Assembly: GCA_030055465.1 (NCBI GenBank)
Contig: JASFYF010000001.1
Coordinates: 894,581-958,580, forward strand
DNA length: 64,000 bases
Reading direction: 5' to 3'
Source of the DNA: Candidatus Nezhaarchaeota archaeon
GTDB taxonomy: Archaea; Thermoproteota; Methanomethylicia; Nezhaarchaeales; WYZ-LMO8
In this document: positions 25-61,117 of the stretch, one piece after another
Layout: the number at the start of each line of letters is the position of its first letter
Numbering within the stretch: position 1 is the first letter of the stretch
Notes under the pieces: generated by a model
Databases searched by the model: none
Told to the model about the DNA's origin: nothing
The model's input: only the letters and a program-made list of their open reading frames with translations
Translations under genes and position numbers: made by a program

Positions 25-1683
25 ACCCAGCACATTGGCGCCTCCTTTTTACCTTGGTCTACGCTCGAGAAGATGTGCGGAAACCTACTTCAGAGCATAA
101 AGGTCGACATCAAGATACCCGGCTTCTTGGTTATAGATACACCAGGCCACGGGGTCTTTGTAAACCTTAGAAGGAGGGGTGGTTCGATAGCCGACATGGC
201 CGTCCTAGTCATAGATATACTTGAAGGATTTGAGGAGATAACGCATGAATGCCTTGAGATTCTGAAAGCACGAAGAGTGCCTTTCGTCGTGGCCGCCAAC
301 AAGATAGACAAAATCCCCGGATGGATTGAAGGGGAGTTCAGGCCCTTCGTTGAAGCTGTTAAGCATCAACCACCTCACGTTCAGAAGAGGCTTGACGAGC
401 TCGTGTACAGCATAGTGGCTAAGTTTGAGGAGCTCGGCTTTCAAGCCGACAGATACGATAGGGTAAGGGACTTCACGAGGACGGTCGCCGTTATACCTAC
501 AAGCGCAAAGAGCGGCGAAGGAATACCTGATCTACTGCTCGTGCTGGCTGGATTATCCCAGAGGTACATGATTAAGAAGCTCTACGTCAGCGATGCGCCA
601 GCTAAAGGCGTCGTGTTGGAGTGCAGGGATGTGACCGGTCTGGGCACGGTTGCCGATGTTATAATTTACGATGGTGTCTTGAAGAGAGATGACACGGTGG
701 TTCTAGGTGGCGTTGAAGGGCCTATTGTGACTAGGATAAGGGGCATATTGATGCCGAAGCCTATGGATGAAATGAGGGATCCCGAGGACAAGTTCAAGAG
801 CGTCGACGAAGTCGCCGCAGCGGCCGGGGTTAGAATAGTGGCGCCCGGTCTTGGCGAGGCCATGGCTGGAGGACCTATATTCTCGGCGAGGAGTCAGGCT
901 GACGTGGAGGCTGCCGTAAGACTGGTATCCGAGGAGATATCGAAAATCAGGGTTACAACTGACGTTCTAGGTGTCGTGGTGAAAGCGGATACTCTAGGTT
1001 CACTGGAGGCGCTGGTCTCAAGGTTGCGGGAGCTTGGAGTTCCGGTGAGGATTGCAGATGTCGGCAAAATCTCGAAGAGGGATGTAATCGAGGCTACCAT
1101 AACGAGGGACAAAGACCCCTATAGGGGTGTGATACTAGCGTTTAATGTGGATGCGTACCCTGATGCTAGGGAGGAGCTTGAAAGCAGGGGGATACCGGTC
1201 TTCGCAAGCAACGTGATTTACAGGCTCATGGACGACTACTTAGACTGGGTTAAGAAGAGGATGGATGAAGAGAAGAGGCGGACCATGGCCTCAATGGTAC
1301 TGCCCGGCAAAGCCCAGTTGCTGAAGGGCTACGTTTTCAGGAGGAGCGACCCAGCAATAGTCGGAGTCGAGGTTCTAGCGGGAAGATTGAAGTCCGGTTA
1401 TCCAATCATTAACTCCAAGGGGAGGAGGCTGGGAACAATAATGCAGATCCAGGACCAGAAGAAGAGTATAAGCGAAGCCGTGGCAGGGCAGTCTGTCGCG
1501 ATATCAATTAGGGGCGACGTGATCGTTGGAAGACACGTAGATGAGGGAGACTACGTCTACGTTGATGTACCCTTCGAGCACGCCAAAGCATTAAAAGAGA
1601 AGTTTTCGGATCAGCTGTCAAAGGAAGAGCTTGAGCTCCTAGAGGAGATATTAAAGATAAAGCGGGCGGCGGGAAGAACGTGA
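25..1683 (+). CDS. infB: translation initiation factor aIF5B (IF2-type GTPase); 5' part missing or interrupted at the window edge
   Basis: Translation from nt 25 reads TQHIGASF..VIDTPGH..AANKIDK, which are GTPase switch-1, G3 and G4 motifs, followed by the long C-terminal domains typical of aIF5B. The ATG at 73 in the track is internal. There is an in-frame TAG at 22-24. Confidence 0.85.
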   Translation, partial: TQHIGASFLPWSTLEKMCGNLLQSIKVDIKIPGFLVIDTPGHGVFVNLRRRGGSIADMAVLVIDILEGFEEITHECLEILKARRVPFVVAANKIDKIPGWIEGEFRPFVEAVKHQPPHVQKRLDELVYSIVAKFEELGFQADRYDRVRDFTRTVAVIPTSAKSGEGIPDLLLVLAGLSQRYMIKKLYVSDAPAKGVVLECRDVTGLGTVADVIIYDGVLKRDDTVVLGGVEGPIVTRIRGILMPKPMDEMRDPEDKFKSVDEVAAAAGVRIVAPGLGEAMAGGPIFSARSQADVEAAVRLVSEEISKIRVTTDVLGVVVKADTLGSLEALVSRLRELGVPVRIADVGKISKRDVIEATITRDKDPYRGVILAFNVDAYPDAREELESRGIPVFASNVIYRLMDDYLDWVKKRMDEEKRRTMASMVLPGKAQLLKGYVFRRSDPAIVGVEVLAGRLKSGYPIINSKGRRLGTIMQIQDQKKSISEAVAGQSVAISIRGDVIVGRHVDEGDYVYVDVPFEHAKALKEKFSDQLSKEELELLEEILKIKRAAGRT

Positions 1684-1797
1684 AGGCCCCTCTTTCTTCG
1701 AGGCATCAGCGTAGAAGAGCCCTTCGACCTCAAAGTTTTTAGCTGAGTCAATCGGTGAGTTCCCGATAAGGGGTGGATAGGAACGCCGGAGTTTAAG

Positions 1798-2136
1798 GTG
1801 GTAGTATCAGACCCGAAGACCGGGAAAGCGCAGCAGGTGTCTGTGAGCGGACCTCAAGCTAATGCGCTTATAGGACTTCGCATAGGCGATGAAGTGGATG
1901 GAACCATAATAGGGATGCCTGGGTTAAAGCTCGAAATACGAGGTGGAAGCGATAGGGGAGGAGCGCCCATGAGAGCGGAGCTACCCGGTCCCGTAAAGAA
2001 GAGGCTGTTGCTCAGCGAGGGGCCCGGCTTTAGGCCGAAGAAGAAGGGTTTAAGGAAGAGAAAGCTGGTTCGCGGAAACGTGGTAACCGATGATATAGTT
2101 CAAGTAAACATGGTAATAAAGCATGAGGGTGGATGA
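1798..2136 (+). CDS. rps6e: 30S ribosomal protein S6e
   Basis: [37 protein letters not shown] matches the eS6 family. GTG start; no upstream in-frame ATG before the stop at 1756. Confidence 0.85.
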
Positions 2137-3423
2137 GTTGGCCGAGGGCTTGAGGATTCAGGCGGAGCTGAACATAGGCACTGCAGGTCACGTAGATCAT
2201 GGGAAAACCACCTTGACGTGGGCGCTGTCCGGGGTGTGGGCTGCGAAGCACTCAGAGGAGCTTAGAAGAGGAATAACGTTGAGGCTGGGATATGCTGACA
2301 CCATCGTGCTAAGGTGCCCTAAGTGTCCTCCACCTCAATGCTACACAACCTACGCCATGTCAGGCGAGACGTGCAAGCACTGCGGCTCCAAGCTCGAATT
2401 CGTAAGGAAGTACTCATTTGTGGATTGCCCAGGTCACGAAATTGCACGCCCATAATGGACGTGCAACGTGAAATGCTCATGGCTACGATGCTGGCGGGGG
2501 CAACGCTTTTCGACGGTGCAATCCTAGTAGTAGACGCAACGGTTCCATGCCCTCAACCCCAGACGAGGGAACACGTGAAGGCCTTGGAGATATTGGATAT
2601 AAGGAACGTCGTGGTTGTGCAGAACAAGGTGGAAGTGGTTCCAAGGGAGAAGGTGCTCCAAAACTACAGGCAGATAAGGGAGTTTCTAGCCGACACCATA
2701 CTCAGGGATGCACCCATAATACCCATCTCAGCACTTCACAGAGCAAACCTTGACGCTTTGCTCGAAGCCATAGAGAAGCACATACCGACGCCCAAGAGAG
2801 ATCCAAACAAGCCCTTCAAGGCTCTGATAGCCAGGTCCTTTGACGTCAATAAGCCTGGCACGGCGCCAGAAGACCTCAAGGGTGGCGTGCTGGGGGGGTC
2901 TATAGTACAAGGCATTGCTAGGGTGGGCGACGAGATAGAGGTTAAGCCAGGCATCAGAATTGAGAGGGGCGGGGGAAGGGCAGAGTACGAGCCCCTTTTC
3001 AGCGAGATAGTGAGCTTGAAGGCCAGCGACATAGAATTAGAGGAGGCAAAACCAGGCGGCCTGATAGGCTTTGGAACTAAGCTGGACCCATCACTAACGA
3101 AAGCGGACTCGATGGCTGGTAGCATAATAGGCAAGCCCGGAACGCTTCCACCCGTACTAACGCAGGTAAACATGGAGTTGTCGCTTTTCGAGAGGGTCGT
3201 CGGGACAGTGGAGATGGCTAAAGTAGACAACGTTAAGCTCAACGAGGTCTTAATGTTGAGCGTTGGCACCACCGCTACGTTGGGCGTTGTGATCAAAGCG
3301 TCAAGGGATGTAGTGACTTTGAAGCTTCGAAGGCCTATATGCGCTGAGCCTGGGACAAGGGTGGCTGTAAGCCGCCAGCTTGAGGGTAGGTTCAGGCTTA
3401 TAGGCTATGGAATCATAAAGTAG
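2123..3423 (+). CDS. eif2g: translation initiation factor aIF2 gamma subunit, interrupted: join(2123..2440,2473..3423)
   Basis: ORF 2123-2455 carries GHVDHGKTT, a zinc knuckle (CPKC..CKHC) and DCPGHE. ORF 2323-3423 carries [21 protein letters not shown] plus domains II and III. The two frames join only if 32 nt are removed. Confidence 0.9.
2441..2472 (+). other. candidate bulge-helix-bulge (BHB) intron inside the aIF2-gamma mRNA
   Basis: A 4-bp helix, CACG (2435-2438) with CGTG (2467-2470), is flanked by AAA bulges at 2439-2441 and 2471-2473. An inner 7-bp helix, TTGCACG (2442-2448) with CGTGCAA (2460-2466), closes an 11-nt loop. Excision restores the frame and the [11 protein letters not shown] motif. 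Confidence 0.7.
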
Positions 3424-3444
3424 GAGGCCACAAACATAGTTGAA

Positions 3445-3828
3445 GTGCTCTTTGACACCAACCTTTTGATGATGATGTTTGAGAGGCCCATAAATATCGT
3501 AGGTGAAGTGGAGTCACTACTCGAAGTTAAAGTGGAACCGGTAGTCCTAAGGGCGCAGCTTATAGAGCTCGAAAACATATCGAAGTCGAGGAGGAGCAAA
3601 GCGTCGAAAATAGCGAGGACCTTACTAGACCTGATCCGGAGGAAGTTTAAAGTTGTTGAGGGGTTTGGCGCCACGGTGGACGATGCGATTGTGGATGTAG
3701 CCAAAAGGGGCCTCCTAATGGTGGCAACAAACGACTGGGAGCTAAGGCGGAAGCTTAGGGAAAACGGTGTAACAGTCATATACCTGAGGAGGGACGGGAA
3801 AATCATGGTTGAAGGCTGTGCGCCTTAG
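3445..3828 (+). CDS. PIN-domain nuclease (Fcf1/Utp24-like)
   Basis: N-terminal VLFDTNLL, an internal acidic residue, and C-terminal ATND..LR pattern of PIN domains. It sits in the conserved position between aIF2-gamma and rpoE. Confidence 0.6.
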   Translation: MLFDTNLLMMMFERPINIVGEVESLLEVKVEPVVLRAQLIELENISKSRRSKASKIARTLLDLIRRKFKVVEGFGATVDDAIVDVAKRGLLMVATNDWELRRKLRENGVTVIYLRRDGKIMVEGCAP

Positions 3829-3915
3829 CTTTCGTGAAAAAGTTTATTACAAAAAGCTCTAAGGTCTCTACATTTACGCGAAACTTGTCTAGTGAAGAGT
3901 AGCGGTGAACTCACG

Positions 3916-4491
3916 ATGTATTACTTGGCTACCATAATTGATGAGGTGAGGATACCTCCAGATAGGTTCAGCGAGGACCTCGAAAGCGTAGCCTTTGACA
4001 GTTTAAAGTCAGCTTATGAGGGGCTCGTGATAAAAGGTCTTGGAATAATCGTCGCCGTCTTGGAAGTGAAGGTTTCTCCGGAAGGCAGGATAATCCCTGG
4101 GGATGGCGCCACATACCATAAAGCCAAGTTTGATGCCCTGGTATTCTCCCCTATCGAAGGTGAAGTCGTGGAGGGAGAGGTAACCGAGGTGCTCGAGTTC
4201 GGCGCCTTCGTCCGGCTGGGTCCTGTAGAAGGCTTAGTCCACATATCCCAGGTTGCCGATGACTACATTTCATACGATAAAAAGAAGGGCGAGCTCCTCT
4301 GCAAGCAGCTTAGGCGCAAGCTGGCTAAAGGGGACTCCGTGAGGGCAAGAGTGGTGACCTTAAGCATGAGCGGAATGAAGCTCAACGAAGTCAAGGTGGG
4401 ATTAACTATGAGGCAGCCGTTTTTGGGGAAGATAGAGTGGATAGAGGAGGACCTTAAAAAGGAGAAGGCAGCAAAGGTGAAGAAGGGTTGA
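3916..4491 (+). CDS. rpoE: DNA-directed RNA polymerase subunit Rpo7 (E')
   Basis: MYYLATIIDEVRIPP.. N-terminal domain plus an S1 fold (GEVVEGEVTEVLEFGAFVRLGPVEGLVHISQV). The ATG at 3916 is preferred over the GTG at 3892 in the track. Confidence 0.85.
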   Translation: MYYLATIIDEVRIPPDRFSEDLESVAFDSLKSAYEGLVIKGLGIIVAVLEVKVSPEGRIIPGDGATYHKAKFDALVFSPIEGEVVEGEVTEVLEFGAFVRLGPVEGLVHISQVADDYISYDKKKGELLCKQLRRKLAKGDSVRARVVTLSMSGMKLNEVKVGLTMRQPFLGKIEWIEEDLKKEKAAKVKKG

Positions 4492-4697
4492 GCAGGAAGT
4501 CCTCAGCTAGGTTTAAGTGCTGTTTGAAGTGCAGGCTTCTGCTTCAAAGCCAGGCGAACATATGCCCAAACTGTAAATCAGATAACTTCAGCTTCGACTG
4601 GAGCGGGCTGGTAGTGGTCTTCGACCCGGAGAACTCCGCTATAGCTAAGATGCTTAAAATAACGAAGCCGGGAAAATACGCTATAAAGTGCAGGTAG
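4488..4697 (+). CDS. spt4: transcription elongation factor Spt4 (RpoE'')
   Basis: Zn-ribbon CLKC..CPNC followed by W.G.V.V.DPE.S..A. It is located directly after rpoE as in most archaea. Confidence 0.8.
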   Translation: MSRKSSARFKCCLKCRLLLQSQANICPNCKSDNFSFDWSGLVVVFDPENSAIAKMLKITKPGKYAIKCR

Positions 4698-4703
4698 AGG
4701 GGC

Positions 4704-5249
4704 TTGAAGGTTAAAGCGTATAGAGTAAACGAAAAGCTTCGAGGCGAGCTCAGCAAACCGTGGGGTACGCTGTTAACCAACGAGGAGATAGCTTCAGGCG
4801 GGCTTGAAGAAGCCCTTCGGTTGTTGAGGCCCACTCTCGTTGTGACCGTGGGCGATGTGACGACACACCTCTTCTTGGAGAGGGGCATCGATGTGAGGGC
4901 AGCGCTGGTAGACATGAGGACGCTGAGAGGGCCTTACTGTTCAAGCTTGCTGAACAAACTACCCCTCACATGCGAGTTGGTGAACCCTCCGGGCCACATA
5001 ATCTCTTCGGCGATGGAACACATAGTGAGGGCCGCCGATGTGGGCGGGCTACTTAAAGTGAGGGGAGAAGAGGACCTCCTCGTTATACCAGCGGTGCTGG
5101 CCCTCCCCGAGGGAGCCGTTGTAGCCTATGGTCAACCAAGGGTTGGGGTAGTACTAATAAGGGTGGATAAAAATAAGAAGGAGAAGGCTGAGGAAATGCT
5201 GAGATTGATGGAGGAGGTTGAGGTTGATGTCGATGCAGTACCAGGTTAA
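4704..5249 (+). CDS. GTP-dependent dephospho-CoA kinase (DUF359 family)
   Basis: VVTVGDVTT and RGEEDLLVIPAVL motifs characteristic of DUF359. Conserved neighbourhood with spt4 and S24e. Confidence 0.7.
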   Translation: MKVKAYRVNEKLRGELSKPWGTLLTNEEIASGGLEEALRLLRPTLVVTVGDVTTHLFLERGIDVRAALVDMRTLRGPYCSSLLNKLPLTCELVNPPGHIISSAMEHIVRAADVGGLLKVRGEEDLLVIPAVLALPEGAVVAYGQPRVGVVLIRVDKNKKEKAEEMLRLMEEVEVDVDAVPG

Positions 5250-5553
5250 GGTGTTGAGAAGCGTTGATAACAAGGTGTTAAACAGGAAGGAGCTCGTACT
5301 TCATGTGGATCACTCGGGCTCCAAGACCCCTACTAGAGATGAAGTGAGGGGCCTAGTTTCGTCGATGCTTGGTGTACCATTAAACTTGGTGGTTGTCAAA
5401 AGCCTGAAAACCCTTTCGGGAACCAACGTTACCGAGGGACACATCCACGTGTACGGGGACGAGAAGGCCCTAGAAGATGTGGAGGCGAAGCACATCAAGC
5501 TGAGGAACTTCGGCAAGAAGGATGAAGAGTCGAAGGGCGAGGAAAAGAAGTAG
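5227..5553 (+). CDS. rps24e: 30S ribosomal protein S24e
   Basis: NKVLNRKELVLHVDHSGSKTPTRDEVR..YGDEKALEDVE matches the eS24 family. The ATG at 5227 or 5233 is preferred over the TTG at 5218. Confidence 0.85.
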   Translation: MSMQYQVKVLRSVDNKVLNRKELVLHVDHSGSKTPTRDEVRGLVSSMLGVPLNLVVVKSLKTLSGTNVTEGHIHVYGDEKALEDVEAKHIKLRNFGKKDEESKGEEKK

Positions 5554-5566
5554 CGGAGGACGATAA

Positions 5567-6571
5567 TTGAAGGACCTCCTGGTTTTAGGGATAGAGTCCA
5601 CAGCCCATACATTCGGTTGCGGAATAGTCAGCGGCGAAGGCGAAGTAGCAGCTGATGAGAGGAGTACCTACATCCCATCTAAGGGCGGTATACATCCTAG
5701 GGAGAGCGCTCAACACCATTCATCCGTGGCCCCCGGCCTAGTGAAGAGGGCGCTGAGTGCGTCGGGCTTAAGCGCGAATGATATAAGCGCCGTTGCCGTC
5801 GCGCTCGGACCTGGATTAGGCCCCTGCTTGAGGGTCGGCGCCACCATAGCTAGGGCGCTCGCAGCCGCTTACGATAAACCGCTCATTCCCGTAAACCACG
5901 CAGTTGCTCATATAGAGATAGCGAAGCTTACAACTCGATTCCGGGATCCGCTTATAGTTTTCGTTTCAGGCGGCAACACCATAATATCTGCTTACTCCGA
6001 CGGGAGGTACAGGGTTTTCGGGGAAACGCTGGATTTAGCTTTGGGGAACATGCTTGATGCATTTGCCAGGGAGGCGGGTCTACCTCACCCAGGTGGACCT
6101 AAAGTTGAGGAGCTGGCCAAGAAGGGAAACAAGTTCATCAAGCTTCCCTACGTGGTGAAGGGGCAGGACGTCTCCTACTCTGGTTTGCTGACTGCCGCCC
6201 TCAAGCTCTTAAAAGAGGGCTTCAGGCTTGAAGATGTTTGTTACAGCCTTCAGGAATATGCTTTTGCCATGCTGGCCGAAGTTGTTGAGAGGGCTTTAGC
6301 GTTTACGGAGAAGAGGGAAGTTGTCTTAACTGGTGGAGTCGCCAGCAACGTGGAGCTTCAGAGGAAACTTGAAATGGTTGCCAAGGAGCACAACGCTGTC
6401 TTCGGCGTGGTTCCGAGGAGCCTTGCCGGGGACAATGGTGTTATGATAGCTTGGACCGGGGCGCTGGCCTACTCTCATGGAGTAACCATTGATGTTGCAG
6501 AAAGCCACGTAAGGCCGAGGTGGAGGCTTGATGAAGTCGATATACCTTGGGTTTCGAGGGGAACTAATTAA
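5567..6571 (+). CDS. kae1: tRNA N6-adenosine threonylcarbamoyltransferase Kae1 (KEOPS)
   Basis: LGIESTAHTFGCGIV, GIHPRESAQHH, VNHAVAHIE and GGVASN motifs of the Kae1/TsaD family. Confidence 0.9.
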   Translation: MKDLLVLGIESTAHTFGCGIVSGEGEVAADERSTYIPSKGGIHPRESAQHHSSVAPGLVKRALSASGLSANDISAVAVALGPGLGPCLRVGATIARALAAAYDKPLIPVNHAVAHIEIAKLTTRFRDPLIVFVSGGNTIISAYSDGRYRVFGETLDLALGNMLDAFAREAGLPHPGGPKVEELAKKGNKFIKLPYVVKGQDVSYSGLLTAALKLLKEGFRLEDVCYSLQEYAFAMLAEVVERALAFTEKREVVLTGGVASNVELQRKLEMVAKEHNAVFGVVPRSLAGDNGVMIAWTGALAYSHGVTIDVAESHVRPRWRLDEVDIPWVSRGTN

Positions 6572-24919: not shown

Positions 24920-25453
24920 TTGATCAGCCCAAAACCAACCATCAGGTGTGAAGTCGGGGAAAGACTGACAGTGAAAGGTGAAGAGGCTGTAAAGCTTAGG
25001 GAGCTTGGATACTACGGTGAAGTAGATGAGAAAGGGAACGTAGTGCTGGACCCTGTTGAGGCTGCCTACCTCCTTGAGAAGGGGGCTCTGAGCTTAGATT
25101 TCCAAGGCAAATCCCTAGATTTCCATGAATTTACGCAATTAATGCTTATGAGGAATCCGATTTTCTGGTATAGATATCTTGTATACTCGGACCTTAAGCG
25201 AAGGGGATATACGGTCAAGCCCGGCTTTTCGACTAGCGATGTAGAATTCAGGCTTTACAGGAGGGGGGTTGAAATAGGCAGGGAAGGTGCTAAGTACATA
25301 GTGTTCGGAGTTGTTGAGGGCAAACCAATAGATCTAAGATCTTTAATCGAAAAGGCCAGAGAAGCCAGGAACTTAAGGAAAGAACTTGTGACTGCTATTG
25401 TAGATGCTCAAGGAGAGGTATGCTACTATTCAGTAGCCTTATCAGATTTGTAG
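24920..25453 (+). CDS. endA: tRNA-splicing endonuclease family subunit (EndA-like; catalytic His not conserved)
   Basis: YLVYSDLKRRGYTVKPGF...FRLYRRG...NLRKELVTAIVDAQGEVCYYSV aligns to the EndA C-terminal domain. The Tyr and Lys are present, but the His of the EHS.Y motif reads EGAKY. Confidence 0.75.
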   Translation: MISPKPTIRCEVGERLTVKGEEAVKLRELGYYGEVDEKGNVVLDPVEAAYLLEKGALSLDFQGKSLDFHEFTQLMLMRNPIFWYRYLVYSDLKRRGYTVKPGFSTSDVEFRLYRRGVEIGREGAKYIVFGVVEGKPIDLRSLIEKAREARNLRKELVTAIVDAQGEVCYYSVALSDL

Positions 25454-25472
25454 CGAAGTGGAGGTTGTGTCG

Positions 25473-26768
25473 ATGAGCAAGCCAAGCTATAAGCGCCCTC
25501 GGGGAACCAGGGATTTCCTTCCTTGGGACATGATAAAGAGGCGGCACGTGATAGAAACAATCAGGAGCGTTTTCGAGCTCCACGGTTACGATGAGGTTGA
25601 AACACCTGCCTTCGAGTTTCTAGAGGTTCTCACGGCTAAGTGCGGGTCAGACGTCAAAGAGCAGATATACTCCTTTAAAGATAAGGCTGGAAGAGACCTA
25701 GGCTTAAGATTCGACCTCACCGTGCCGCTGGCGAGAATCGCCGCGAACAACCCGAACTTGTTGAAGCCATTTAAGAGGTACTGCATATCGAAGGTTTGGA
25801 GGTACGAGGAACCGCAAAGCGGTAGGTTCAGGGAGTTTTGGCAAGCCGACGTGGACATTGTTGGCAGTCCAAAAATGGACTCGGATGCCGAGGTCATAGC
25901 CGTTGCCATCATGTGCCTTGAAAGGCTTGGAATGAAGAACTTCAAGGTCAGGGTCAACAACAGAAAGATACTTGAATCCATAGCGTCAACCATCGGTTTG
26001 GAAGGAGAACAATCTCTGAGCTTTTTCAGGACCATAGATAAGCTGGACAAAATAGGAGCGGAAGGAGTGAAGAGAGAGTTGGTGAAGATGGGTTTAGAGG
26101 GCTTTCAGGTTGATAACGTAATGAATCTGATGTCAAAGTCCGGTGATGTAGATCGCATAGAGGCGGAGGTAAGCAATGCCTTGACGCAGGAAGGCCAGGA
26201 GGGCATCAAGGAGCTGAGCGAGCTTATAAGCTCTCTAGAGCTGCACGGTTACTCAAAGTACGTGGTTGTGGATTTAAGCCTAGCAAGGGGCTTGGACTAC
26301 TACACCGGACCGATATTCGAGGTGTCGGCTGAGACTACGGTCAGCGTCGGCAGTGTGGCGGGTGGAGGAAGATACGACAACTTGGTGGAGCTGCTGGGGG
26401 GGCCTCCAACACCTGCAACGGGCATATCGCTTGGGGTGGACAGGCTGGTTGAGGTGCTTGAGGAGGCAAACATGTTGCCCTCATCTAAAACGGTAACCAA
26501 GGTGTTCGTAGCGTGCGCGTTGCCACACTTGAAGCGAGATGCATTACGATTGGCTGGCGCGCTGAGGGCTAAAGGGGTAAACGCCGAGACGGATTTAATG
26601 GAAAGAAAGCTTGACAGACAGTTAAAGTACTCCGATGCCAAGGGCATCCCCTACACGATCATAGTAGGACCCGAAGAACTCAGCCGTGGAGTTTATAGGT
26701 TAAGGGATATGAAGAGTCGAACGGAATATGTGGTAAACTTTGAAGAGCTCCTCCAAAAGCTCAGCTAA
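25473..26768 (+). CDS. hisS: histidyl-tRNA synthetase
   Basis: RGTRDFLP, class II motifs (FRYE.PQ.GR.REF.Q, GGGRYD), anticodon-binding C-terminus. Confidence 0.9.
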   Translation: MSKPSYKRPRGTRDFLPWDMIKRRHVIETIRSVFELHGYDEVETPAFEFLEVLTAKCGSDVKEQIYSFKDKAGRDLGLRFDLTVPLARIAANNPNLLKPFKRYCISKVWRYEEPQSGRFREFWQADVDIVGSPKMDSDAEVIAVAIMCLERLGMKNFKVRVNNRKILESIASTIGLEGEQSLSFFRTIDKLDKIGAEGVKRELVKMGLEGFQVDNVMNLMSKSGDVDRIEAEVSNALTQEGQEGIKELSELISSLELHGYSKYVVVDLSLARGLDYYTGPIFEVSAETTVSVGSVAGGGRYDNLVELLGGPPTPATGISLGVDRLVEVLEEANMLPSSKTVTKVFVACALPHLKRDALRLAGALRAKGVNAETDLMERKLDRQLKYSDAKGIPYTIIVGPEELSRGVYRLRDMKSRTEYVVNFEELLQKLS

Positions 26769-28687: not shown

Positions 28688-28816
28688 TGGTCCCCGGGGC
28701 AGGATTTGAACCTGCGACCACTCGGTCTCGGCCGACGGGTTTTCATCGCAACGGGGACCGCCCCTCGACCCGTGCACAAGCTACAGCCGAGCGCTCTACC
28801 ACTGAGCTACCCGGGG
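28688..28816 (-). tRNA. tRNA-Tyr(GTA) with a 54-nt intron in the anticodon loop; CCA encoded
   Basis: The reverse complement folds as CCCCGGG/CCCGGGG acceptor (C1-G72), GCTC/GAGC D arm, CTCGG/CCGAG anticodon stem, loop CTGTAG[intron]A, and GCAGG-TTCAAAT-CCTGC T arm. Confidence 0.85.
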
Positions 28817-29286: not shown

Positions 29287-29378
29287 CGCCCCGGGGAGGA
29301 CTCGAACCTCCGACCTACGGGTTTCCGCCGGCTGCTGAGCTAACAGCCCGCCGCTCTGCCTAACTGAGCTACCGGGGC
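29287..29378 (-). tRNA. tRNA-Asn(GTT) with an 18-nt intron after position 36/37; CCA not encoded
   Basis: The reverse complement folds as GCCCCGG/CCGGGGC acceptor, GCTC/GAGC D arm, GCGGG/CCCGT anticodon stem, loop CTGTTA[intron]A, and GGAGG-TTCGAGT-CCTCC T arm. Confidence 0.85.
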
Positions 29379-37779: not shown

Positions 37780-38211
37780 ATGGTGAGTGCTGAAGAAGGA
37801 AGAGAGGAGAAATACCTCCTATTGCTTGATAGAGCGTTAAACCTAGTACCCTCAAGGGCCTTGGCGGGAGGCCGTTTTCAAACCCCCAAAGCTAAAATCG
37901 CAGTCGTGGGCAATAGGACTATAATATCCAACTTTAAGGAGATAACCTCAACGTTGAACAGGAAACCTGAGCAGTTCTTCAACTTTTTGTTGCACGAGCT
38001 TGGGACGGCAGGAACAATGGAGGACACTAGGGCTGTACTGCATGGTAAATTCTCAAGTGACAAGATAAATGGCCTCATAGAAGTATACATAAAGCTATAC
38101 GTGATATGCCCTGTATGCAAAGGCGTAGACACAAGCCTACAGAAAGAAGGCAAGGTGCTCCTAATTCGCTGTGAAGCATGCGGCGCAATAAGCCCAGCTA
38201 GAGGGGCCTAG
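37780..38211 (+). CDS. eif2b: translation initiation factor aIF2 beta subunit
   Basis: Central domain plus a C-terminal Zn-ribbon (CPVCKGVDT..CEACGA). Confidence 0.85.
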   Translation: MVSAEEGREEKYLLLLDRALNLVPSRALAGGRFQTPKAKIAVVGNRTIISNFKEITSTLNRKPEQFFNFLLHELGTAGTMEDTRAVLHGKFSSDKINGLIEVYIKLYVICPVCKGVDTSLQKEGKVLLIRCEACGAISPARGA

Positions 38212-38212
38212 C

Positions 38213-38530
38213 GTGAAAGAAAAAAAAGATGTAGAGGTCTACGTGAAGGTCCACCACCACGGAAAGGACGTGGTCGTTGCCATATGTGATGTGAACCTCA
38301 TTGGTAAGACGTTCACGGACGGCCCCCTCAGAATAGAGGTAAGCGAGGAGTTCTACGGCGGGGAGAAGGTCAACATTCAAGAGGCAATGAACATAGCTAA
38401 GAAGGCAACCATTGCCAACTTCTTGGGAGAAGAAGCCGTCAAGCATGCTATTAAGCGTAAACTCGTACACAAGGACTGCGTGATCGAAGTCGCCTCGATT
38501 CCCCACGCACAACTCATAAAGATAGTTTAG
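38213..38530 (+). CDS. DUF424 domain protein
   Basis: VKVHHHGKDVVVAICDVNLIGK pattern. Its position after aIF2-beta is conserved in archaea. Confidence 0.55.
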   Translation: MKEKKDVEVYVKVHHHGKDVVVAICDVNLIGKTFTDGPLRIEVSEEFYGGEKVNIQEAMNIAKKATIANFLGEEAVKHAIKRKLVHKDCVIEVASIPHAQLIKIV

Positions 38531-38575
38531 TATTTATGGCTCGAACTCCTACTCTTAGCGTGGGGAAACGGCCAG

Positions 38576-39331
38576 TTGAAGTTGAAAAGGTTCTGCGCTA
38601 AGTGCGGCGTCGAAGTAACGCTTGAGGAGTCCTTGAATTTTAAGAACTTATGTCTAAACTGCTACAAGGAGCTTCACGGTAAAGTAGCGCTCCCACCGGT
38701 AAATGTGGTTTTATGTAGAAAGTGCTTTTCTGTCAAGGTTAGAGGCAGATGGCAACCATTAGACCTCTCGTCTGAAGAGTTGGCGGCATCAACCATAGCC
38801 CAACTGATAGAGGGTGAGGTGAAAAGGACCTGTGGACTTGAAGTGAAGGTTTACCTTACACCACAAGAGGTCTACAAGCTTTTTTCGGGTGAAAGAATAG
38901 GCGTGAACGCCACGGTGAATGAGGCTTTACATCCACGTGCAGCCTCTAGTCTTCCCCCTCTTGATGTTAGGGGCACCTTCTCGGTATGCCATACCTGTCT
39001 GAGGGTTGCAGGTAAAAATTTTGAAGCTACGCTACAGCTTCGTGATTTCGCTCCGAGAGAGCTTGACCAAATAAAGTTCATTGTTAATAAGCTCGTAGTC
39101 GAAAGGTCGGGGGGCTCACATAATTTACAGACGGGAGTCACATGGGAGGAAGTGGATGGAGGCGTCGACATTAAGGTGCCGTCCATCTACATGGCCCGCG
39201 CCATAGCAAGCCACATTAAGAGGAGATTCGCTGTTTTGGTTAGAGAATCGTACAAAGATGCTGGATGGAGCAGAAGTAGAGGCAAGCCCTTCCGGAAGCT
39301 TACAATCCTTCTTAGGCTTCGAAACACTTAA
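38576..39331 (+). CDS. NMD3-family ribosome biogenesis protein
   Basis: N-terminal CxxC clusters (CAKCG..CLNC..CRKC) followed by an NMD3-like body. Confidence 0.6.
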   Translation: MKLKRFCAKCGVEVTLEESLNFKNLCLNCYKELHGKVALPPVNVVLCRKCFSVKVRGRWQPLDLSSEELAASTIAQLIEGEVKRTCGLEVKVYLTPQEVYKLFSGERIGVNATVNEALHPRAASSLPPLDVRGTFSVCHTCLRVAGKNFEATLQLRDFAPRELDQIKFIVNKLVVERSGGSHNLQTGVTWEEVDGGVDIKVPSIYMARAIASHIKRRFAVLVRESYKDAGWSRSRGKPFRKLTILLRLRNT

Positions 39332-39365
39332 TAGTTCATCCACTTATCCACACACTGGATACAAC

Positions 39366-39668
39366 GTGAGGCAGAAAGAAGATAGCAGAGACCTGAGAAC
39401 TCCAGCGGAGGGCGAAACCATAGGTTTAGTAACAAAGCTGCTCGGTAACGATAGGGTTGAAGTAAAGACGGCAGATGGAAAAATCCTTCGATGTAGAATA
39501 CCGGGCAAGCTAAGAAAAAGGCTATGGTTTAGGGAAGGAGACTTCGTCCTCGTAGCACCTTGGGACTTCCAAGGTGGTAAAGGAGACCTCCTTTGGAGGT
39601 ACACAAGAGATGAAGTGGAAGAGCTTAGGCGAAGAGGCCTATTAGGTGCTTTAGCTGAGGAAAGCTAG
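39366..39668 (+). CDS. eif1a: translation initiation factor aIF1A
   Basis: S1-like OB fold: GETIGLVTKLLGNDRVEVKTADGKILRCRIPGKLRKRLWFREGDFVLV. GTG start at 39366 inside the longer track ORF. Confidence 0.85.
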   Translation: MRQKEDSRDLRTPAEGETIGLVTKLLGNDRVEVKTADGKILRCRIPGKLRKRLWFREGDFVLVAPWDFQGGKGDLLWRYTRDEVEELRRRGLLGALAEES

Positions 39669-40438
39669 CAGCCCAGAACTTCGTTTAAGACGTCCTCAAC
39701 GGTGGCGTTCACCCCCTTTCTCCTGAAGAAGTTGACCACGTTTTTTACGTCCCTCTCCAAGAACATCTGCGAACTTGGGTGGCTTACTAGGACCGCTTGA
39801 CCGAAGTCAAATAATATGGGCTCATCCCTCCAAACCATGATGTTGTACTCGCTTAAATCGGCATGGATGAGCTTAGCTTTACAGTAGAGTAGCTTCAGGC
39901 TCTTAATGACCTTCTCGAATACGGATCCGAAGTTCACGTGATCTACGTCTTTGAGAAGTGGTGCGGGTGATCCGTTATCACCTATGAATGACATGACCAC
40001 CACGTTTTTGTAGACATCTATAGGCTTAGGGACGCTTACGCCAACATTATAGGCCTTAACCAAGTTCTTGTACTCCTTAAGCGCCCATGCGTAGATGAGT
40101 GGCCTCGTAGCCCTTCTAACCTTCTTGTTGAACCTCACGTCACCTTCAATGTATTGCGAGAAGGTTTTTTTGAACTCTCGAGTTGATGTGAGGAAGATCT
40201 TGACCGCTAGGTCTTCACCATCAGGTGATTTCGCCCAATAAACTCTAGACTCCTTACCAGTGCTTACAACACCGTGTATTACATCTATGACCTTCCGGTT
40301 TATAAGCTTGTAAAGTGCTTCCAACGTAAACTTGTCGAAGACTTCTTCAACTGTTTCGAGCAGATCCCTATCTTTCCTTCTTTTCTCCTCCTTCGTTTTA
40401 AAGGCGCCCTCGCCCTTCCCTCTTAGATACTTACCCAC
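39665..40438 (-). CDS. rio1: RIO-type serine/threonine kinase (Rio1)
   Basis: STGKESRVY, LIHADLSEYN and IDFGQA motifs. Confidence 0.85.
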   Translation of the reverse strand: MGKYLRGKGEGAFKTKEEKRRKDRDLLETVEEVFDKFTLEALYKLINRKVIDVIHGVVSTGKESRVYWAKSPDGEDLAVKIFLTSTREFKKTFSQYIEGDVRFNKKVRRATRPLIYAWALKEYKNLVKAYNVGVSVPKPIDVYKNVVVMSFIGDNGSPAPLLKDVDHVNFGSVFEKVIKSLKLLYCKAKLIHADLSEYNIMVWRDEPILFDFGQAVLVSHPSSQMFLERDVKNVVNFFRRKGVNATVEDVLNEVLGC

Positions 40439-40509
40439 TACATACCAAGACTATTAAGGATGACTTCGCTTATATATAACCTTACTTAGTTGAAGTAGTA
40501 GCACGATAG

Positions 40510-41154
40510 ATGGTGATAGCGTTGTGGGGAACCGTGTACAAGGACTATGTTCAAGTACCAATGGATAGGATAGGGGTCCTCATAGGCAAAGGCGGAGCCG
40601 TAAAGAAGGAGATAGAGGAGACATATAATGTTAAGCTAGACATAGATAGCTCTACGGGAACCGTATGTATCGAGCTCCTCGAAAACTCAAATCCATCATC
40701 TTTGTTGACCGTTAAGAACATAGTTCAAGCAATAGGATGCGGAATAAATCCAAATAGGGCATTAGAGGTCTTCAGCTCTGAAGATGGCGCACTGCACGTT
40801 ATAGACTTGAAAAACCTCGCGAGGGGTTCAAGAGATAACCTCGTGAGAATTAAGGGGAGAATTATAGGTGAGAAAGGCAAGGCGAGGAGACTTATAGAGG
40901 AGCTCACGAATGCTTCGATCTCAATATCGGAGAACACAGTCACAATAGTCGGCAAATTGGAGAACGTGGAGATAGCCCGACGGGCCGTAGAGATGTTGAT
41001 ATCCGGAAGCCCCCACAACGTTGTTTGGAAATACCTTTACAAGATGAGGAGAGAGCTTAAAAGAAGGGGTTTTATACTTTGGGAGCCGAAAAGCCCTTCC
41101 TTGGAGGGCAAGGTTAACAACGCCGAAAAAGCGCGTGGTGAAGAAGATGAGTAA
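40510..41154 (+). CDS. KH-domain RNA-binding protein (Dim2/Pno1-like)
   Basis: Two KH-type GxxG motifs (IGKGG, IGEKGKARR). Its position next to rio1 is typical. Confidence 0.65.
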   Translation: MVIALWGTVYKDYVQVPMDRIGVLIGKGGAVKKEIEETYNVKLDIDSSTGTVCIELLENSNPSSLLTVKNIVQAIGCGINPNRALEVFSSEDGALHVIDLKNLARGSRDNLVRIKGRIIGEKGKARRLIEELTNASISISENTVTIVGKLENVEIARRAVEMLISGSPHNVVWKYLYKMRRELKRRGFILWEPKSPSLEGKVNNAEKARGEEDE

Positions 41155-42778
41155 GTGGATCGTGACTTGCGCATGGCCCTACGTTAATTACATTCCCCAC
41201 CTAGGCACCATGATAGGCTCCGCACTCTCGGCGGACGTAATAGCCCGGTACTTGAGAATGAAGGGCGAAGAGGTTGTCTTTGTTAGCGGCTCCGACGAGC
41301 ATGGAACACCAATAGAGGTAGAGGCCGTGAGGAGAGGGACAAATCCAAAGTCCCTTTGCGATGAAAATCACAGGAAGATAAGTGAACTTTTCAAAAGGTG
41401 GAACATTTCATTCGATAACTACTCGAGAACTGAAAGCGAATACCATAAGGAGTTCGTAAAGAACTTCTATTTGAGGTTATATGGGAAAGGCTTCGTTTAC
41501 GAAGAGGAGGTTGAGCTTCCTTTTTGTCCTCGTTGCCAAAGATTCCTGCCTGACAGGTTTATAAGCGGGGCATGTCCCTATTGCAATTTTGAAGATGCTA
41601 GGGGAGATCAATGCGATGGTTGCGGTCGCCTTCTAGAGCCTTTAAAGCTTCTTCAACCCAAGTGCGCCATTTGCGGCTCAAAACCCGAAGTCAAGAAGAC
41701 GAAGCACTGGTTTTTTGATTTTCCCAAGCTGACAGAAAAGCTTAAAGAATACATAGAGAGCGCTCCTCTCCTCACAGAGAACGCCAAAAACATGAGTTTA
41801 AGCCTCCTCAAGGAGGGGCTGAGGGCTAGATCTCTTACAAGAGATAACAAGTGGGGTATAGAGGCGCCTTTCCCCGGTTCCGAGGGGAAAACCATATACG
41901 TATGGATGGAGGCGATTCTCGGATACATATCAGCCACAATAGAGTATTTTGCCAACGTTGGCTCTAAAGACAAGTGGAGGGAGTATTGGTTTGATAAGAA
42001 ATGCCGACTGCTATGCTTTATAGGCAAGGATAACATACCATTCCACACGTTGATATTACCAGCGCTCCTCATGGCCTCCAATGAGGGCTACGTTCTGCCT
42101 TGGGGGGTCTCGGCCACGGAATACTTGTTGTTTGAAGGCCAGAAGTTCTCCAAGAGCAGGAGAATAGGGATTTGGATAGATGAGGCGTTGGAGATGTTTC
42201 CCGTGGACTACTGGAGATATGTCCTCTTAAGCACCAGACCTGAAGGAAGAGATTCGAGCTTTTCGTGGTCCGTGTTCAAGGAACTTGTCAACACTCAACT
42301 TAATGATACGTTGGGCAACTTCGTTCACAGGGTTTTAACGTTCACTTCAAGAACCTTCAGTTCCCTGATCCCGGCACCTAGAAGTAGTTGGGTAAGCGAA
42401 GAACTTTGGGTACAAGTTTTAAAGAGATTTAGCGCCTGCACCCATAACCTTGACAACTTGCGGATTAAAGATGCTTTGCAGGAAGTTATGAACTTGGCTA
42501 GGGACGGTAATAAATACTTAAATGAGCAAGCTCCATGGGATCTAATAAAGAGAGGTGACGTAGAGCGCGCATCCACGTGTATTTACGTTTGTTTAAACGC
42601 AATCAAATCATTATCAATCATGCTGACACCATTTATACCCACAACTGCGAATGAGATATGGAAGGCGCTAGGTCTCCAATCACACGTGTGGGAGGAGAGC
42701 TGGTACGAAGCGACGAAGCCATTGGAACCTGGTACAAGGATTCTCGAAGTGAAGCCCATCTTCACTAAGATAAAGTAG
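41147..42778 (+). CDS. metG: methionyl-tRNA synthetase
   Basis: PYVNYIPHLGT (HIGH-type), Zn knuckles (CPRC..CPYC, CDGC..CAIC), KFSKSRR (KMSKS). Confidence 0.9.
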   Translation: MSKWIVTCAWPYVNYIPHLGTMIGSALSADVIARYLRMKGEEVVFVSGSDEHGTPIEVEAVRRGTNPKSLCDENHRKISELFKRWNISFDNYSRTESEYHKEFVKNFYLRLYGKGFVYEEEVELPFCPRCQRFLPDRFISGACPYCNFEDARGDQCDGCGRLLEPLKLLQPKCAICGSKPEVKKTKHWFFDFPKLTEKLKEYIESAPLLTENAKNMSLSLLKEGLRARSLTRDNKWGIEAPFPGSEGKTIYVWMEAILGYISATIEYFANVGSKDKWREYWFDKKCRLLCFIGKDNIPFHTLILPALLMASNEGYVLPWGVSATEYLLFEGQKFSKSRRIGIWIDEALEMFPVDYWRYVLLSTRPEGRDSSFSWSVFKELVNTQLNDTLGNFVHRVLTFTSRTFSSLIPAPRSSWVSEELWVQVLKRFSACTHNLDNLRIKDALQEVMNLARDGNKYLNEQAPWDLIKRGDVERASTCIYVCLNAIKSLSIMLTPFIPTTANEIWKALGLQSHVWEESWYEATKPLEPGTRILEVKPIFTKIK

Positions 42779-45196: not shown

Positions 45197-46831
45197 GTGA
45201 AGTTGAAACGCGCACACATCAACACTGCTATGATAATTGCAGCTATCTTGTTGTTGCTCCTCGAGAGCGCACATTGCATGGAGCAAGAAGCACCTCGTGC
45301 CTATTTAACAACCGAGGTTGCCACATCATACACTTATGCTGTGGCCACTTACACGCTTCACTTAGAGGGCCTTCGGGGGGCTACAACTTTAAATGTAAGC
45401 ATAAGCGATGCCCCCTCCCTCTACGATGCTGTGTGCGGAGGGACTTCCTCGAGATTTTGGCTGATAGAGGTGCCAAGCTCCGCGTCGACTTTCAACATTA
45501 CCGTCAAGGCCTTGTACCTCATCGAGCCAAGGTCGGCGGGAGAAGAAGGATACCTGCTTAGGCTTCCACTTAATCCATCCGTATCGACGACGATTGCAAG
45601 CGTCAACGCAACTATTCACTTGCCTTCGGAGATCGCTGAAGTTAGTTTCACGTCCGGAAGCAACGACATCAACATTACGTCTACGGGACCCTTAATTAAC
45701 GCGCAAGCCTTTAATGTTTCACCCTATGAAGTTAGGGATTTAAGCATCGTGATTAACTTCAACAACTCCGCTTTACCTTGGCTTTTCAAGGTAAAAAAAG
45801 CTTCTAGGGAAATATACCTTGACTCGAAGACCGTGGTAGACCAAATAACTATTGAGGGGTTATCCAACAGTTATTGGGTTAGGCAATCCATCTTTAACTT
45901 TGAGGTGCCCAGTGCTCTGAATATCTTAGAGGTAGGGGACTTCGCAGGACCCTACATTGAAACGAATTCCCATCCTAGCTTTGGACAATTCAGGCTTCTC
46001 AGCCTGAACGATACTTGCCTACTGCAAGTCCAGCCGCGGGTTTCAATCTCGAGTGGGGAACAAACAACCTTCTACATCAAATACGAGCTTAAAGAAACCT
46101 CTCCCGTGTCCCTGATGCCTCCCTACCTTCAATACGTAGATGAAATTGAAGTTAACATCCGCCTACCAGAGGGCTCACAGCTGAGGAAGGTTGATCCGGA
46201 ACCATACTGCATCAATGGCTTAACGATATTTTATAGGGCTACGAACATTTCGCGCCTACGAATTCTCAGCTCAACTGTTGAGTACGCACCTCCCCTTATT
46301 TCGCGAGGCCTAGTTGTCCTCATAGGATTTTTGATGGCTTTAGTGGTCGGGGGCGTGGCTGCAGTATCGGTTAGGAGCAAGAGGCTTAAGCGCAAGACGC
46401 AAGAAAAACGCTTGGTTATTCCAACTTTAGAGCAACTTGAAAGCTCGCTTAACGCATATCTAAAAATAGCCGGTGAGCTTTGGGGACTACGTGAGGATTA
46501 CGTAAAAAGCAGGATAAAGGAACCTATTTATAGGAGGAGGGCTAACCAGCTTAAATCGCTTCACCTAGAATACTTGAAGAGAAACATGGAGCTATCAAGG
46601 CAGCTCGAAGAGCTTCCAGGGCTACGCAAGATTTGCCAGAAGGTGCGCTCCCTGCTTGAAGGCGCTCTGAACCTTGAAGAGGAGTTTGAAAAGCTCTGCA
46701 ACTTGATAGACGATAAAAAGATGGCTAGGGCCGAGGCGCTTCGAAGAAGCGCGTCCCTGAAAAGAAAGGCCGAGGTCATATGGGGCGATCTTCAAAGGTT
46801 GAAATCAAAGATTCGTGAAGCGATAGTTTAA
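45197..46831 (+). CDS. hypothetical surface-exposed membrane protein with a cytoplasmic coiled-coil tail
   Basis: N-terminal signal or anchor, at least 8 N-x-S/T sequons in the first 350 aa, one TM (LVVLIGFLMALVVGGVAAV), and a charged helical C-terminus. Confidence 0.45.
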   Translation: MKLKRAHINTAMIIAAILLLLLESAHCMEQEAPRAYLTTEVATSYTYAVATYTLHLEGLRGATTLNVSISDAPSLYDAVCGGTSSRFWLIEVPSSASTFNITVKALYLIEPRSAGEEGYLLRLPLNPSVSTTIASVNATIHLPSEIAEVSFTSGSNDINITSTGPLINAQAFNVSPYEVRDLSIVINFNNSALPWLFKVKKASREIYLDSKTVVDQITIEGLSNSYWVRQSIFNFEVPSALNILEVGDFAGPYIETNSHPSFGQFRLLSLNDTCLLQVQPRVSISSGEQTTFYIKYELKETSPVSLMPPYLQYVDEIEVNIRLPEGSQLRKVDPEPYCINGLTIFYRATNISRLRILSSTVEYAPPLISRGLVVLIGFLMALVVGGVAAVSVRSKRLKRKTQEKRLVIPTLEQLESSLNAYLKIAGELWGLREDYVKSRIKEPIYRRRANQLKSLHLEYLKRNMELSRQLEELPGLRKICQKVRSLLEGALNLEEEFEKLCNLIDDKKMARAEALRRSASLKRKAEVIWGDLQRLKSKIREAIV

Positions 46832-60676: not shown

Positions 60677-61117
60677 TTGTTGAAGAAAACGTACATAGCG
60701 GTGATAAACCCTCAGTCCCAGCTAAGCGCGGATGGGCTTCTTGAAGAAGTCCTAAACTTGGGCGTTAACGTCACTGTTAAGTGCACGTGCTTCGGGTTAA
60801 TGGTTGAAGGAGAGGAAGATGAAACAGCTAAGATAATAGGATACCTTAGAAGAAAGCACCCATACGATGTATTCATAAAGCTGAGGGGTTACCCCATAAA
60901 TGATAGGCGAGTCTGCCGTGCATATCGAGGCGGCGGCCAAAGACCTGGATTTCATCAGCTAGATGCCGAATACGAGCTTTTACCAATAATATCAGAGGCG
61001 CTTAGGGATCTTGCCAAGGAGCCAGCAAAGAATCTAAAGCTTCAAAGAGAAGAGAGACCGATAAGCGTTGGAGAATTGAAGGAGGTAGTTGAGGCGGTGT
61101 TGAAAGGTGAAGGTTAA
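60677..61117 (+). CDS. methanogenesis marker protein 6 (Mmp6)-like
   Basis: VTVKCTCFGLMVEGEED..RGYPINDRRVCRAYRGGGQRPGFHQLDAE resembles the Mmp6 pattern as recalled. Its start abuts the mmp3 stop. Confidence 0.55.
   Translation: MLKKTYIAVINPQSQLSADGLLEEVLNLGVNVTVKCTCFGLMVEGEEDETAKIIGYLRRKHPYDVFIKLRGYPINDRRVCRAYRGGGQRPGFHQLDAEYELLPIISEALRDLAKEPAKNLKLQREERPISVGELKEVVEAVLKGEG

Follow-up and report, generated by a model that had tools for sequence, protein, structure and literature searches.

In archaea, the exons left after cleavage at a motif of bulge-helix-bulge (BHB) type are joined by an RNA ligase. The intron of the cbf5 pre-mRNA of Crenarchaeota was reportedly treated by Watanabe 2002 and Yoshinari 2006. 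It was described by Yokobori 2009 (PMC2738675) and is found in Desulfurococcales and Sulfolobales; the literature that we searched gives no other BHB intron that lies within a coding sequence of archaea (PMC7714728, PMC10485636). The other archaeal mRNA BHB intron is located in the 5' untranslated region of Haloferax volcanii HVO_1309 (PMC7714728, PMC10485636), and a 2023 review holds that more such introns 'remain to be discovered' (PMC10485636). In BHB motifs, relaxed ones included, the tRNA-splicing endonuclease places its cut after the second nucleotide of the bulge and before the third, a rule that was used for cbf5 (PMC2738675). Endonucleases of the (alpha-beta)2 and epsilon2 types with a specific loop process relaxed BHB motifs, also outside tRNA (PMC5829648, PMC2738675), and the Crenarchaea-specific loop is conserved throughout TACK (PMC5829648). 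Here we analysed a stretch of 64,000 nucleotides (nt) from a Candidatus Nezhaarchaeota archaeon, called the window below, in which the gene for the initiation factor aIF2-gamma is interrupted by a short insert at positions 2441-2472. Judging from sequence comparison, the insert is very probably a genuine endonuclease-type (BHB) intron, of a relaxed form, in the aIF2-gamma coding sequence, which would be removed by endonuclease and RNA ligase. Our literature search found no BHB intron linked to aIF2 and no intron of any kind linked to Nezhaarchaeota. An earlier sequence-only reading of the window had called BHB introns very rare in protein-coding genes, with cbf5 as the classic case, and the single coding-sequence family in the literature searched agrees with that (PMC7714728, PMC10485636).

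The interrupted gene consists of the following parts.

2123-2440, forward strand: aIF2-gamma exon 1, codons 1-106, with the G1 motif GHVDHGKT, the zinc-knuckle cysteines and the G3 motif DCPGHE (list of open reading frames (ORFs), translation, 1kk0 alignment).

2441-2472, forward strand: putative intron of 32 nt, ATTGCACGCCCATAATGGACGTGCAACGTGAA, with homologous inserts at the same codon boundary in relatives.

2473-3423, forward strand: aIF2-gamma exon 2, 316 codons and a TAG stop, its first codon being the ATG of MLMATML (ORF list, 1kk0 alignment).

By the ORF list and translation, ORF 2123-2455 is the N-terminal part and ORF 2323-3423 the C-terminal part of aIF2-gamma. In the DCPGHE/MLMATML switch-2 motif the insert lies precisely at the boundary of the Glu and Met codons, and the unspliced frame meets a TAA stop at 2453-2455, inside the insert. 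Deletion of the 32 nt of 2441-2472 brings GGT CAC GAA together with ATG CTC ATG and gives a single ORF of 422 amino acids (aa), which scored 614 bits against NCBIfam NF003077 (aIF2-gamma). Along its entire length the joined product aligned with the aIF2-gamma of P. abyssi (1kk0; E = 4e-164), the junction being free of gaps (1kk0: idapghealmttmlaga), and it was likewise aligned full length, with an ungapped junction, to other solved aIF2-gamma structures. The NF003077 score and the 1kk0 alignment thus bear out two proposals of the sequence-only reading, namely that the two ORFs are the N- and C-terminal parts of one aIF2-gamma and that deleting 2441-2472 restores the spacing of the switch-2/G3 motif. 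That reading had also suggested looking for a second intact aIF2-gamma; none was found within the window or in any carrier assembly, in a scan of peptide patterns that gives weak evidence. The ORF fragments of the window gene are absent from the protein collection, though the product of a neighbouring gene from the same genome is present, and the aIF2-gamma gene seems not to have been called as a gene in the public annotation of the window's own genome.

The junctions of the insert form a compact RNA element. Positions 2435-2473 read CACG AAA TTGCACG, the 11-nt loop CCCATAATGGA, and CGTGCAA CGTG AAA, with the following parts.

2435-2438, forward strand: 5' strand of the central helix H, CACG, made of the His codon and the first base of the Glu codon of exon 1; pairs with 2467-2470.

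2439-2441, forward strand: 5' bulge AAA, with the predicted 5' cut between 2440 and 2441; A-A/G-A in relatives.

2442-2466, forward strand: inner helix h' and its loop, TTGCACG (2442-2448) pairing with CGTGCAA (2460-2466).

2467-2470, forward strand: 3' strand of the central helix H, CGTG, in the intron.

2471-2473, forward strand: 3' bulge AAA, with the predicted 3' cut between 2472 and 2473.

All of these parts, the CACG/CGTG helix, the two AAA bulges, the 7-bp inner helix and the loop, had been named by the sequence-only reading and were confirmed in the sequence. The RNA fold that it had proposed as a check gave the same helices: RNAfold on 2415-2495 recovered H, a 3-nt bulge and the inner hairpin, together with three extra CCA/UGG base pairs (bp) in the loop and a U2434-A2471 pair. 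In this minimum-free-energy fold h' continues through CCA (2450-2452) and TGG (2456-2458) beyond a C2449/A2459 mismatch. As a BHB requires, H is exactly 4 bp long (CACG/CGUG) and carries two 3-nt bulges on opposite strands, the 3' site having the form A-N-A. The earlier proposal that a cut after the second bulge nucleotide excises exactly 32 nt follows the same rule as cbf5 (PMC2738675), and the cuts that this rule predicts would leave a gapless aIF2-gamma, as expected of BHB cleavage. A cut register shifted by one base in the 3' direction gives the identical mRNA, so that more than one phosphodiester bond fits the sequence. With respect to the canonical hBHBh' form, an h' of 7-10 bp is present, and of the outer helix h there is nothing or no more than 1 bp, together with scattered pairs under coding constraint; in the window the 3' bulge is left unclosed by a helix, with U2434 opposite U2474. 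Because no convincing exon-exon outer helix closes the 3' site, the motif as predicted is of the relaxed HBh' class (per PMC5829648) and not a canonical BHB. The statement of the earlier reading that there is no outer exon-exon helix, and that the form is a relaxed one, stands accordingly, only coding-constrained, non-covarying pairs having been found.

The element is internally repetitive and palindromic: CACG occurs twice (exon 2435-2438, intron 2445-2448), as does CGTG (intron 2460-2463 and 2467-2470). The reverse strand of the element was also matched by the covariance model, with 27 bits. The internal repeats may hint at an origin by local inverted duplication.

Relatives were found by a protein search with the spliced product, and the corresponding DNA was taken from GTDB genomes, JGI metagenomes and two Logan contigs. 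The protein matches formed two groups, one of full-length aIF2-gamma with up to 69% identity and the other of proteins of 314-322 aa with 75-80% identity, which start at or just before MLMATML and thus have the length of exon 2. The identical codon boundary carries an insert in 25 related loci, which come from independent assemblies of genomes and metagenomes; including the window there are 20 distinct sequences (19 without it). The inserts are 31, 32, 33 or 35 nt long, which excludes a fixed or common frameshift as their explanation. They are built, in order, of A, TTGCACGCCC, a loop varying from 5 to 8 nt, GGGCGTGCAA, CGTG, A and any base, with ATG coming next, and in the relatives h' is an uninterrupted 10-bp stem of TTGCACGCCC and GGGCGTGCAA. 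The intron-free relatives all read CCN GGN CAY GAR ATG with nothing inserted; they comprise another subgroup of Nezhaarchaeales, Methanomethylicia, Culexarchaeum, Methanodesulfokora, Woesearchaeota and unlabelled metagenome contigs. Neighbour-joining on the exon-2 proteins put the 19 distinct carriers into one monophyletic group, within which the window branched first, and the sister clade was free of the insert. On this tree a single gain of the insert would be the most parsimonious history. The alignment of orthologues, which the sequence-only reading had proposed as a check, therefore places the insert at the same codon in one clade and finds it missing from the sister lineages. The gene order around aIF2-gamma is the same in one carrier locus, L018, as in the window.

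The public annotation of these genes deserves a separate remark. In more than 20 GenBank protein accessions from metagenome-assembled genomes of Candidatus Nezhaarchaeales, aIF2-gamma is annotated as a 'truncated' protein of 314-322 aa that lacks G1-G3 and corresponds to exon 2 only. In L018 the 111-aa product of exon 1 is called as a separate GTP_EFTU gene (2682-3017). Analyses of marker genes and of completeness in Nezhaarchaeales inherit this annotation error.

In all 17 carriers that were examined both exons were intact, and exon 1 had G1, the zinc-knuckle cysteines and G3. Nei-Gojobori estimates from the 15 carriers with complete flanks gave, for either exon, a synonymous difference pS of 0.72-0.74 (saturated), a non-synonymous difference pN of about 0.06 and a dN/dS of about 0.03. 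The 24 paired bases of the intron differed by 0.054 on average, or by 0.023 without L018, and thus change more than ten times more slowly than synonymous sites. Both the sequence and the length of the loop vary, and any of A, T, C and G occurs as the final base of the intron, which sits in the middle of the 3' bulge. Standard pairs made up 98.9% of cells on the named structure, compared with 20-51% in controls with a slid 3' partner. Two compensatory swaps in h' were seen in L018 (U-A to C-G and C-G to U-A), G.U intermediates occurred in L054, L006 and L018, and RNAalifold predicted the same helices independently. The pattern is that expected of a BHB intron, with a conserved and covarying structure and drifting unpaired parts.

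The exon side of the motif also carries a signal. The His codon that pairs in H is CAC in all 17 distinct carriers, compared with 8 CAC and 9 CAT in the intron-free relatives (Fisher p = 0.0009, ignoring phylogeny), and the base 5' of H is A in 15 of 17 carriers compared with 7 of 17 intron-free relatives (p = 0.010). A single A-U pair between this A and the U of AUG closes the 3' bulge in 18 of 20 aligned carriers, the window not being among them. These figures support a synonymous-site constraint on the exon bases that would pair with the intron.

The h' stem, TTGCACGCCC with GGGCGTGCAA, is near-invariant in 16 of 17 lineages despite saturated synonymous sites, with swaps in L018 only. This invariance looks stronger than pairing by itself would require. 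Possible reasons are a sequence-specific contact, an additional role of the intron, or slow compensatory evolution in an essential gene of a thermophile; the intron or the unspliced RNA might accordingly have a further function, which the invariant stem would reflect.

Beyond the observed sequence, structure, frame restoration, conservation and selection pattern, we infer the cleavage, the ligation and the enzymes involved. In the proposed mechanism, CACG at the end of exon 1 would pair in the pre-mRNA with CGUG at the 3' end of the intron and form the 4-bp central helix, the intron hairpin of 7-10 bp would serve as the inner helix, and the splice sites would lie in the 3-nt bulges on opposite strands. 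The tRNA-splicing endonuclease would then cut after the second bulge nucleotide on each side, between 2440 and 2441 and between 2472 and 2473, and an RtcB-type RNA ligase would join the exons to GGU CAC GAA AUG CUC, from which the 422-aa aIF2-gamma would be translated. In carriers the spliced junction would read CCNGGNCACGAR straight into ATGYTNATGGC. Unspliced RNA would yield only a fragment of 110 aa that ends in GHEIARP before the stop. That splicing is rate-limiting and regulated, as an archaeal parallel to the logic of HAC1/XBP1, so that the supply of aIF2-gamma, the GTPase that binds initiator tRNA, and with it global initiation would be gated by endonuclease and RtcB, i.e. by the capacity for tRNA and rRNA maturation, seems doubtful to us. 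The coupling of initiation capacity to RNA processing that the sequence-only reading had put forward is likewise speculative.

One candidate component of such an enzyme and two possible further substrates are encoded in the window.

24920-25453, forward strand: EndA family subunit, 177 aa (Pfam PF01974, PF02778).

28691-28816, reverse strand: tRNA gene of 126 nt, its anticodon loop containing about 54-57 inserted nt (Rfam RF00005, 61.7 bits; without an ARAGORN call).

29287-29378, reverse strand: tRNA-Asn(GTT) with an insert of 18-19 nt after the anticodon (ARAGORN, Rfam).

The gene at 24920-25453 is the only EndA-family gene in the window, and its product and MDI9620129.1, from a Candidatus Nezhaarchaeota archaeon, have 100% identity. 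The catalytic triad of EndA consists of Tyr, His and Lys (PMC5829648). In this subunit the catalytic His is replaced by Gly (REGAKY, where M. jannaschii has KEHSVY), and Tyr and Lys are kept. The same position is Gly in 11 clade homologues and Glu in a twelfth, and the His is lost also in more distant single-unit relatives. In the closest two-unit EndAs the catalytic His is lost in the N-terminal unit and not in the C-terminal unit. The protein is most likely a structural subunit of a hetero-oligomeric endonuclease, such an enzyme being implied because the EndA subunit of the window is without the catalytic His. The EndA-family gene ends 4 nt before the HisRS gene (25458-26768), and this adjacency, we presume, recalls the endA-trpS1 pairing in Haloferax. 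From its sequence the anticodon of the tRNA at 28691-28816 looks like GUA (Tyr), and this tRNA gene is expected to be another substrate of the same enzyme. A clean canonical BHB could be placed for neither tRNA insert by eye or by minimum-free-energy folding. Cbf5 was found neither in the window nor in the fetched loci.

Several alternatives to splicing were considered. Split protein genes exist in some archaea, and the gene could be split into a 110-aa part (G1-G3) and a 316-aa part starting at ATG 2473, two polypeptides that would assemble without any RNA splicing. Such an arrangement would be in line with the stop that follows within a few codons of exon 1 in most carriers, with the ATG at the start of exon 2, with the weakly Shine-Dalgarno-like GGGCGTG of the 3' stem strand 9 nt before this ATG, and with the public annotation, which calls the 314-322 aa part as a gene. 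However, the putative ribosome-binding bases are locked in the 10-bp stem, the junction Met is ancestral and found in intron-free relatives too, and the tails of the N-terminal fragments differ, being IARP and a stop in most carriers, IACRYGHAT and a stop in L018 and a long read-on in L006. The break would also fall inside switch 2 of the GTPase core, and the complementarity between exon CACG and intron, the exact 3-nt spacers and the synonymous constraint on the His codon would be left unexplained. We consider a split gene improbable.

Cleavage could also take place with the exons not or rarely religated, the element then being a site that destabilises the mRNA or limits its dosage. Yeast TSEN does cleave some mRNAs for decay and not for splicing (PMC10485636), but the strong purifying selection on both exons means that a full-length product must be made, and an uninterrupted aIF2-gamma was not detected in carrier assemblies or elsewhere in the window. 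The cut sites moreover yield a perfect in-frame junction, and we find cleavage of this kind quite improbable.

Translational bypassing would have the ribosome take off at the Glu codon 2438-2440, skip the hairpin and the stop, and land on GAA 2470-2472. Its product would be identical to the spliced one, a stop codon does lie in the loop of a stable hairpin, and in the window the ribosome would leave from one GAA and land on another. Among the carriers, however, 10 of 17 have GAT or GAC for landing, and the third base of this triplet is unconstrained (A, T, C or G), so that take-off and landing codons are not matched, and the geometry of the H helix is left unexplained; there is very little to recommend this alternative. 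A pseudogene or a sequencing or assembly artefact, which the broken raw-sequence frame and the absence of the gene's own ORF fragments from the protein collection might have suggested, is effectively refuted, since dN/dS is about 0.03 in both exons, the GTPase motifs are all intact, the insert itself is under purifying selection and the same insert recurs in the 25 loci of independent assemblies (GTDB genomes, JGI metagenomes, Logan).

A number of points weigh against reading the insert as an intron. In a search of both strands for a strict motif (4 Watson-Crick bp, a 3-nt bulge, a contiguous inner helix of at least 7 bp and an intron of at most 150 nt), the window gave 7 matches, compared with a mean of 3.75 and a range of 0-9 in 20 shuffles. 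H appeared in the minimum-free-energy folds of about 10 of the 17 sequences at 37 C, and the number was lower at 75 C. H is paired and invariant in 19 of 19 distinct sequences and shows no covariation, its 5' strand being also coding-constrained, and beyond the single A-U pair only invariant, coding-constrained, non-covarying pairs were found for an outer helix. The compensatory swaps come from one lineage, and 7 of 500 shuffles reach the same count. The window copy is the least regular of the carriers, with a C/A mismatch in h' and U.U in place of the closing A-U. No full-length, spliced-type aIF2-gamma of a carrier lineage was found in the protein collection, and neither a catalytic EndA subunit with its Crenarchaea-specific loop nor an RtcB ligase was found in the 64-kb window or in the fetched loci. 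Finally, archaea can translate nascent transcripts, so unspliced RNA would yield a truncated fragment.

The structure by itself is not above chance, the fold of 81 nt having z = -1.29, and because the bare motif is not rare in the window the claim cannot rest on structure alone. Cut sites that coincide with the restored ancestral frame have a chance of the order of 1e-4 by position. What is above chance is the combination of frame-restoring cut sites with conservation in relatives, and we take the comparative evidence as decisive. The central proposal of the sequence-only reading, a BHB-type intron whose removal is needed for full-length aIF2-gamma, has thus been strengthened by the same-site insert in one clade, the purifying selection, the compensatory pairs, and the EndA subunit and two intron-containing tRNAs of the window.

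The covariance model matched only the aIF2-gamma site across 53 loci, and it gave no further copy of the element in the window, where the next best match had 10 bits. A 10-mer search of the element returned chance-level matches only. A second strict BHB-like motif is found in exon 2 at 2740-2769 on the forward strand, comprising 30 nt in frame; it was taken as a chance match, since the residues that its removal would delete align with P. abyssi aIF2-gamma. A relaxed-motif scan for further split genes was uninformative, with about 3,500 hits and an ORF-joining filter that mostly fused neighbouring genes. Other split genes were not found in the window, where adjacent same-strand ORF pairs belong to different Pfam families.

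The aIF2-gamma gene lies in a neighbourhood of translation genes (73-6571) with aIF5B, cut by the window start, S6e, aIF2-gamma, a PIN-domain protein, Rpo7, DUF359, S24e and Kae1/TsaD. A second such neighbourhood (37780-42778) contains aIF2-beta (37780-38211), DUF424, NMD3, aIF1A (39258-39668), a KH-domain protein and MetRS. Adjacent DUF2102 and DUF2113 genes are located at 60677-61670 on the forward strand; we take these to be families of methanogenesis-marker type, which would fit the methane metabolism proposed for Nezhaarchaeota. Two long ORFs, at 45197-46831 on the forward strand (544 aa) and at 53613-54743 on the reverse strand (376 aa), have no Pfam match at E <= 1e-5.

If the splicing proposal is true, the case would be one of a clade-wide intron in an essential core translation factor. 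It would offer a natural system for the origin and persistence of such introns and for how splicing coexists with translation of nascent transcripts.

Compared with the known systems, the bypass of T4 gene 60 resembles the aIF2-gamma locus in that a hairpin and a stop codon lie in a short untranslated stretch of a coding sequence, but the bypass needs matched take-off and landing codons, and these are not conserved among the aIF2-gamma carriers. HAC1/XBP1, spliced by Ire1 and tRNA ligase or RtcB, is a functional analogy only. There too RNA stem-loops mark a short intron with a length that is not a multiple of 3 (26 nt in XBP1), a protein endonuclease makes the cuts, a ligase of the tRNA type seals the RNA, and the unspliced and spliced mRNAs encode different products; however, the nuclease and the recognition motif are unrelated, and HAC1/XBP1 is a regulated stress switch. 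In HVO_1309, too, the tRNA-splicing endonuclease has a substrate that is an mRNA and neither tRNA nor rRNA, but there the intron is a canonical BHB, it lies in an untranslated region and leaves the reading frame uninterrupted, and the host, a euryarchaeon, has an alpha'2 enzyme. The non-canonical tRNA introns of TACK (HBh'/hBH/BHL) share the 4-bp central helix, one well-formed bulge with a flanking helix while the other site is open, the size range and the presumed enzymes. The aIF2-gamma intron differs from them in having no tRNA body, its exons being coding, so that the 5' strand of H must encode His-Glu. The likeness to cbf5 is a short, relaxed BHB-like intron at a catalytically central motif of a coding sequence, with a cut (predicted, for aIF2-gamma) between the second and third bulge bases, restricted to a clade with gain and loss, and linked, in aIF2-gamma probably, to a hetero-oligomeric splicing endonuclease. 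The cbf5 gene encodes a pseudouridine synthase of Crenarchaeota, whereas aIF2-gamma is an initiation factor of Nezhaarchaeota/Nezhaarchaeales; the cbf5 intron falls between the first and second bases of an Asp codon, whereas the aIF2-gamma intron falls between codons; and cbf5 splicing was demonstrated by cDNA and in vitro cleavage, whereas the aIF2-gamma intron is known from sequence alone. By the literature searched, aIF2-gamma would be the second archaeal coding sequence to need splicing of the tRNA type, belonging to the mechanism class of cbf5 in a new gene and a new lineage.

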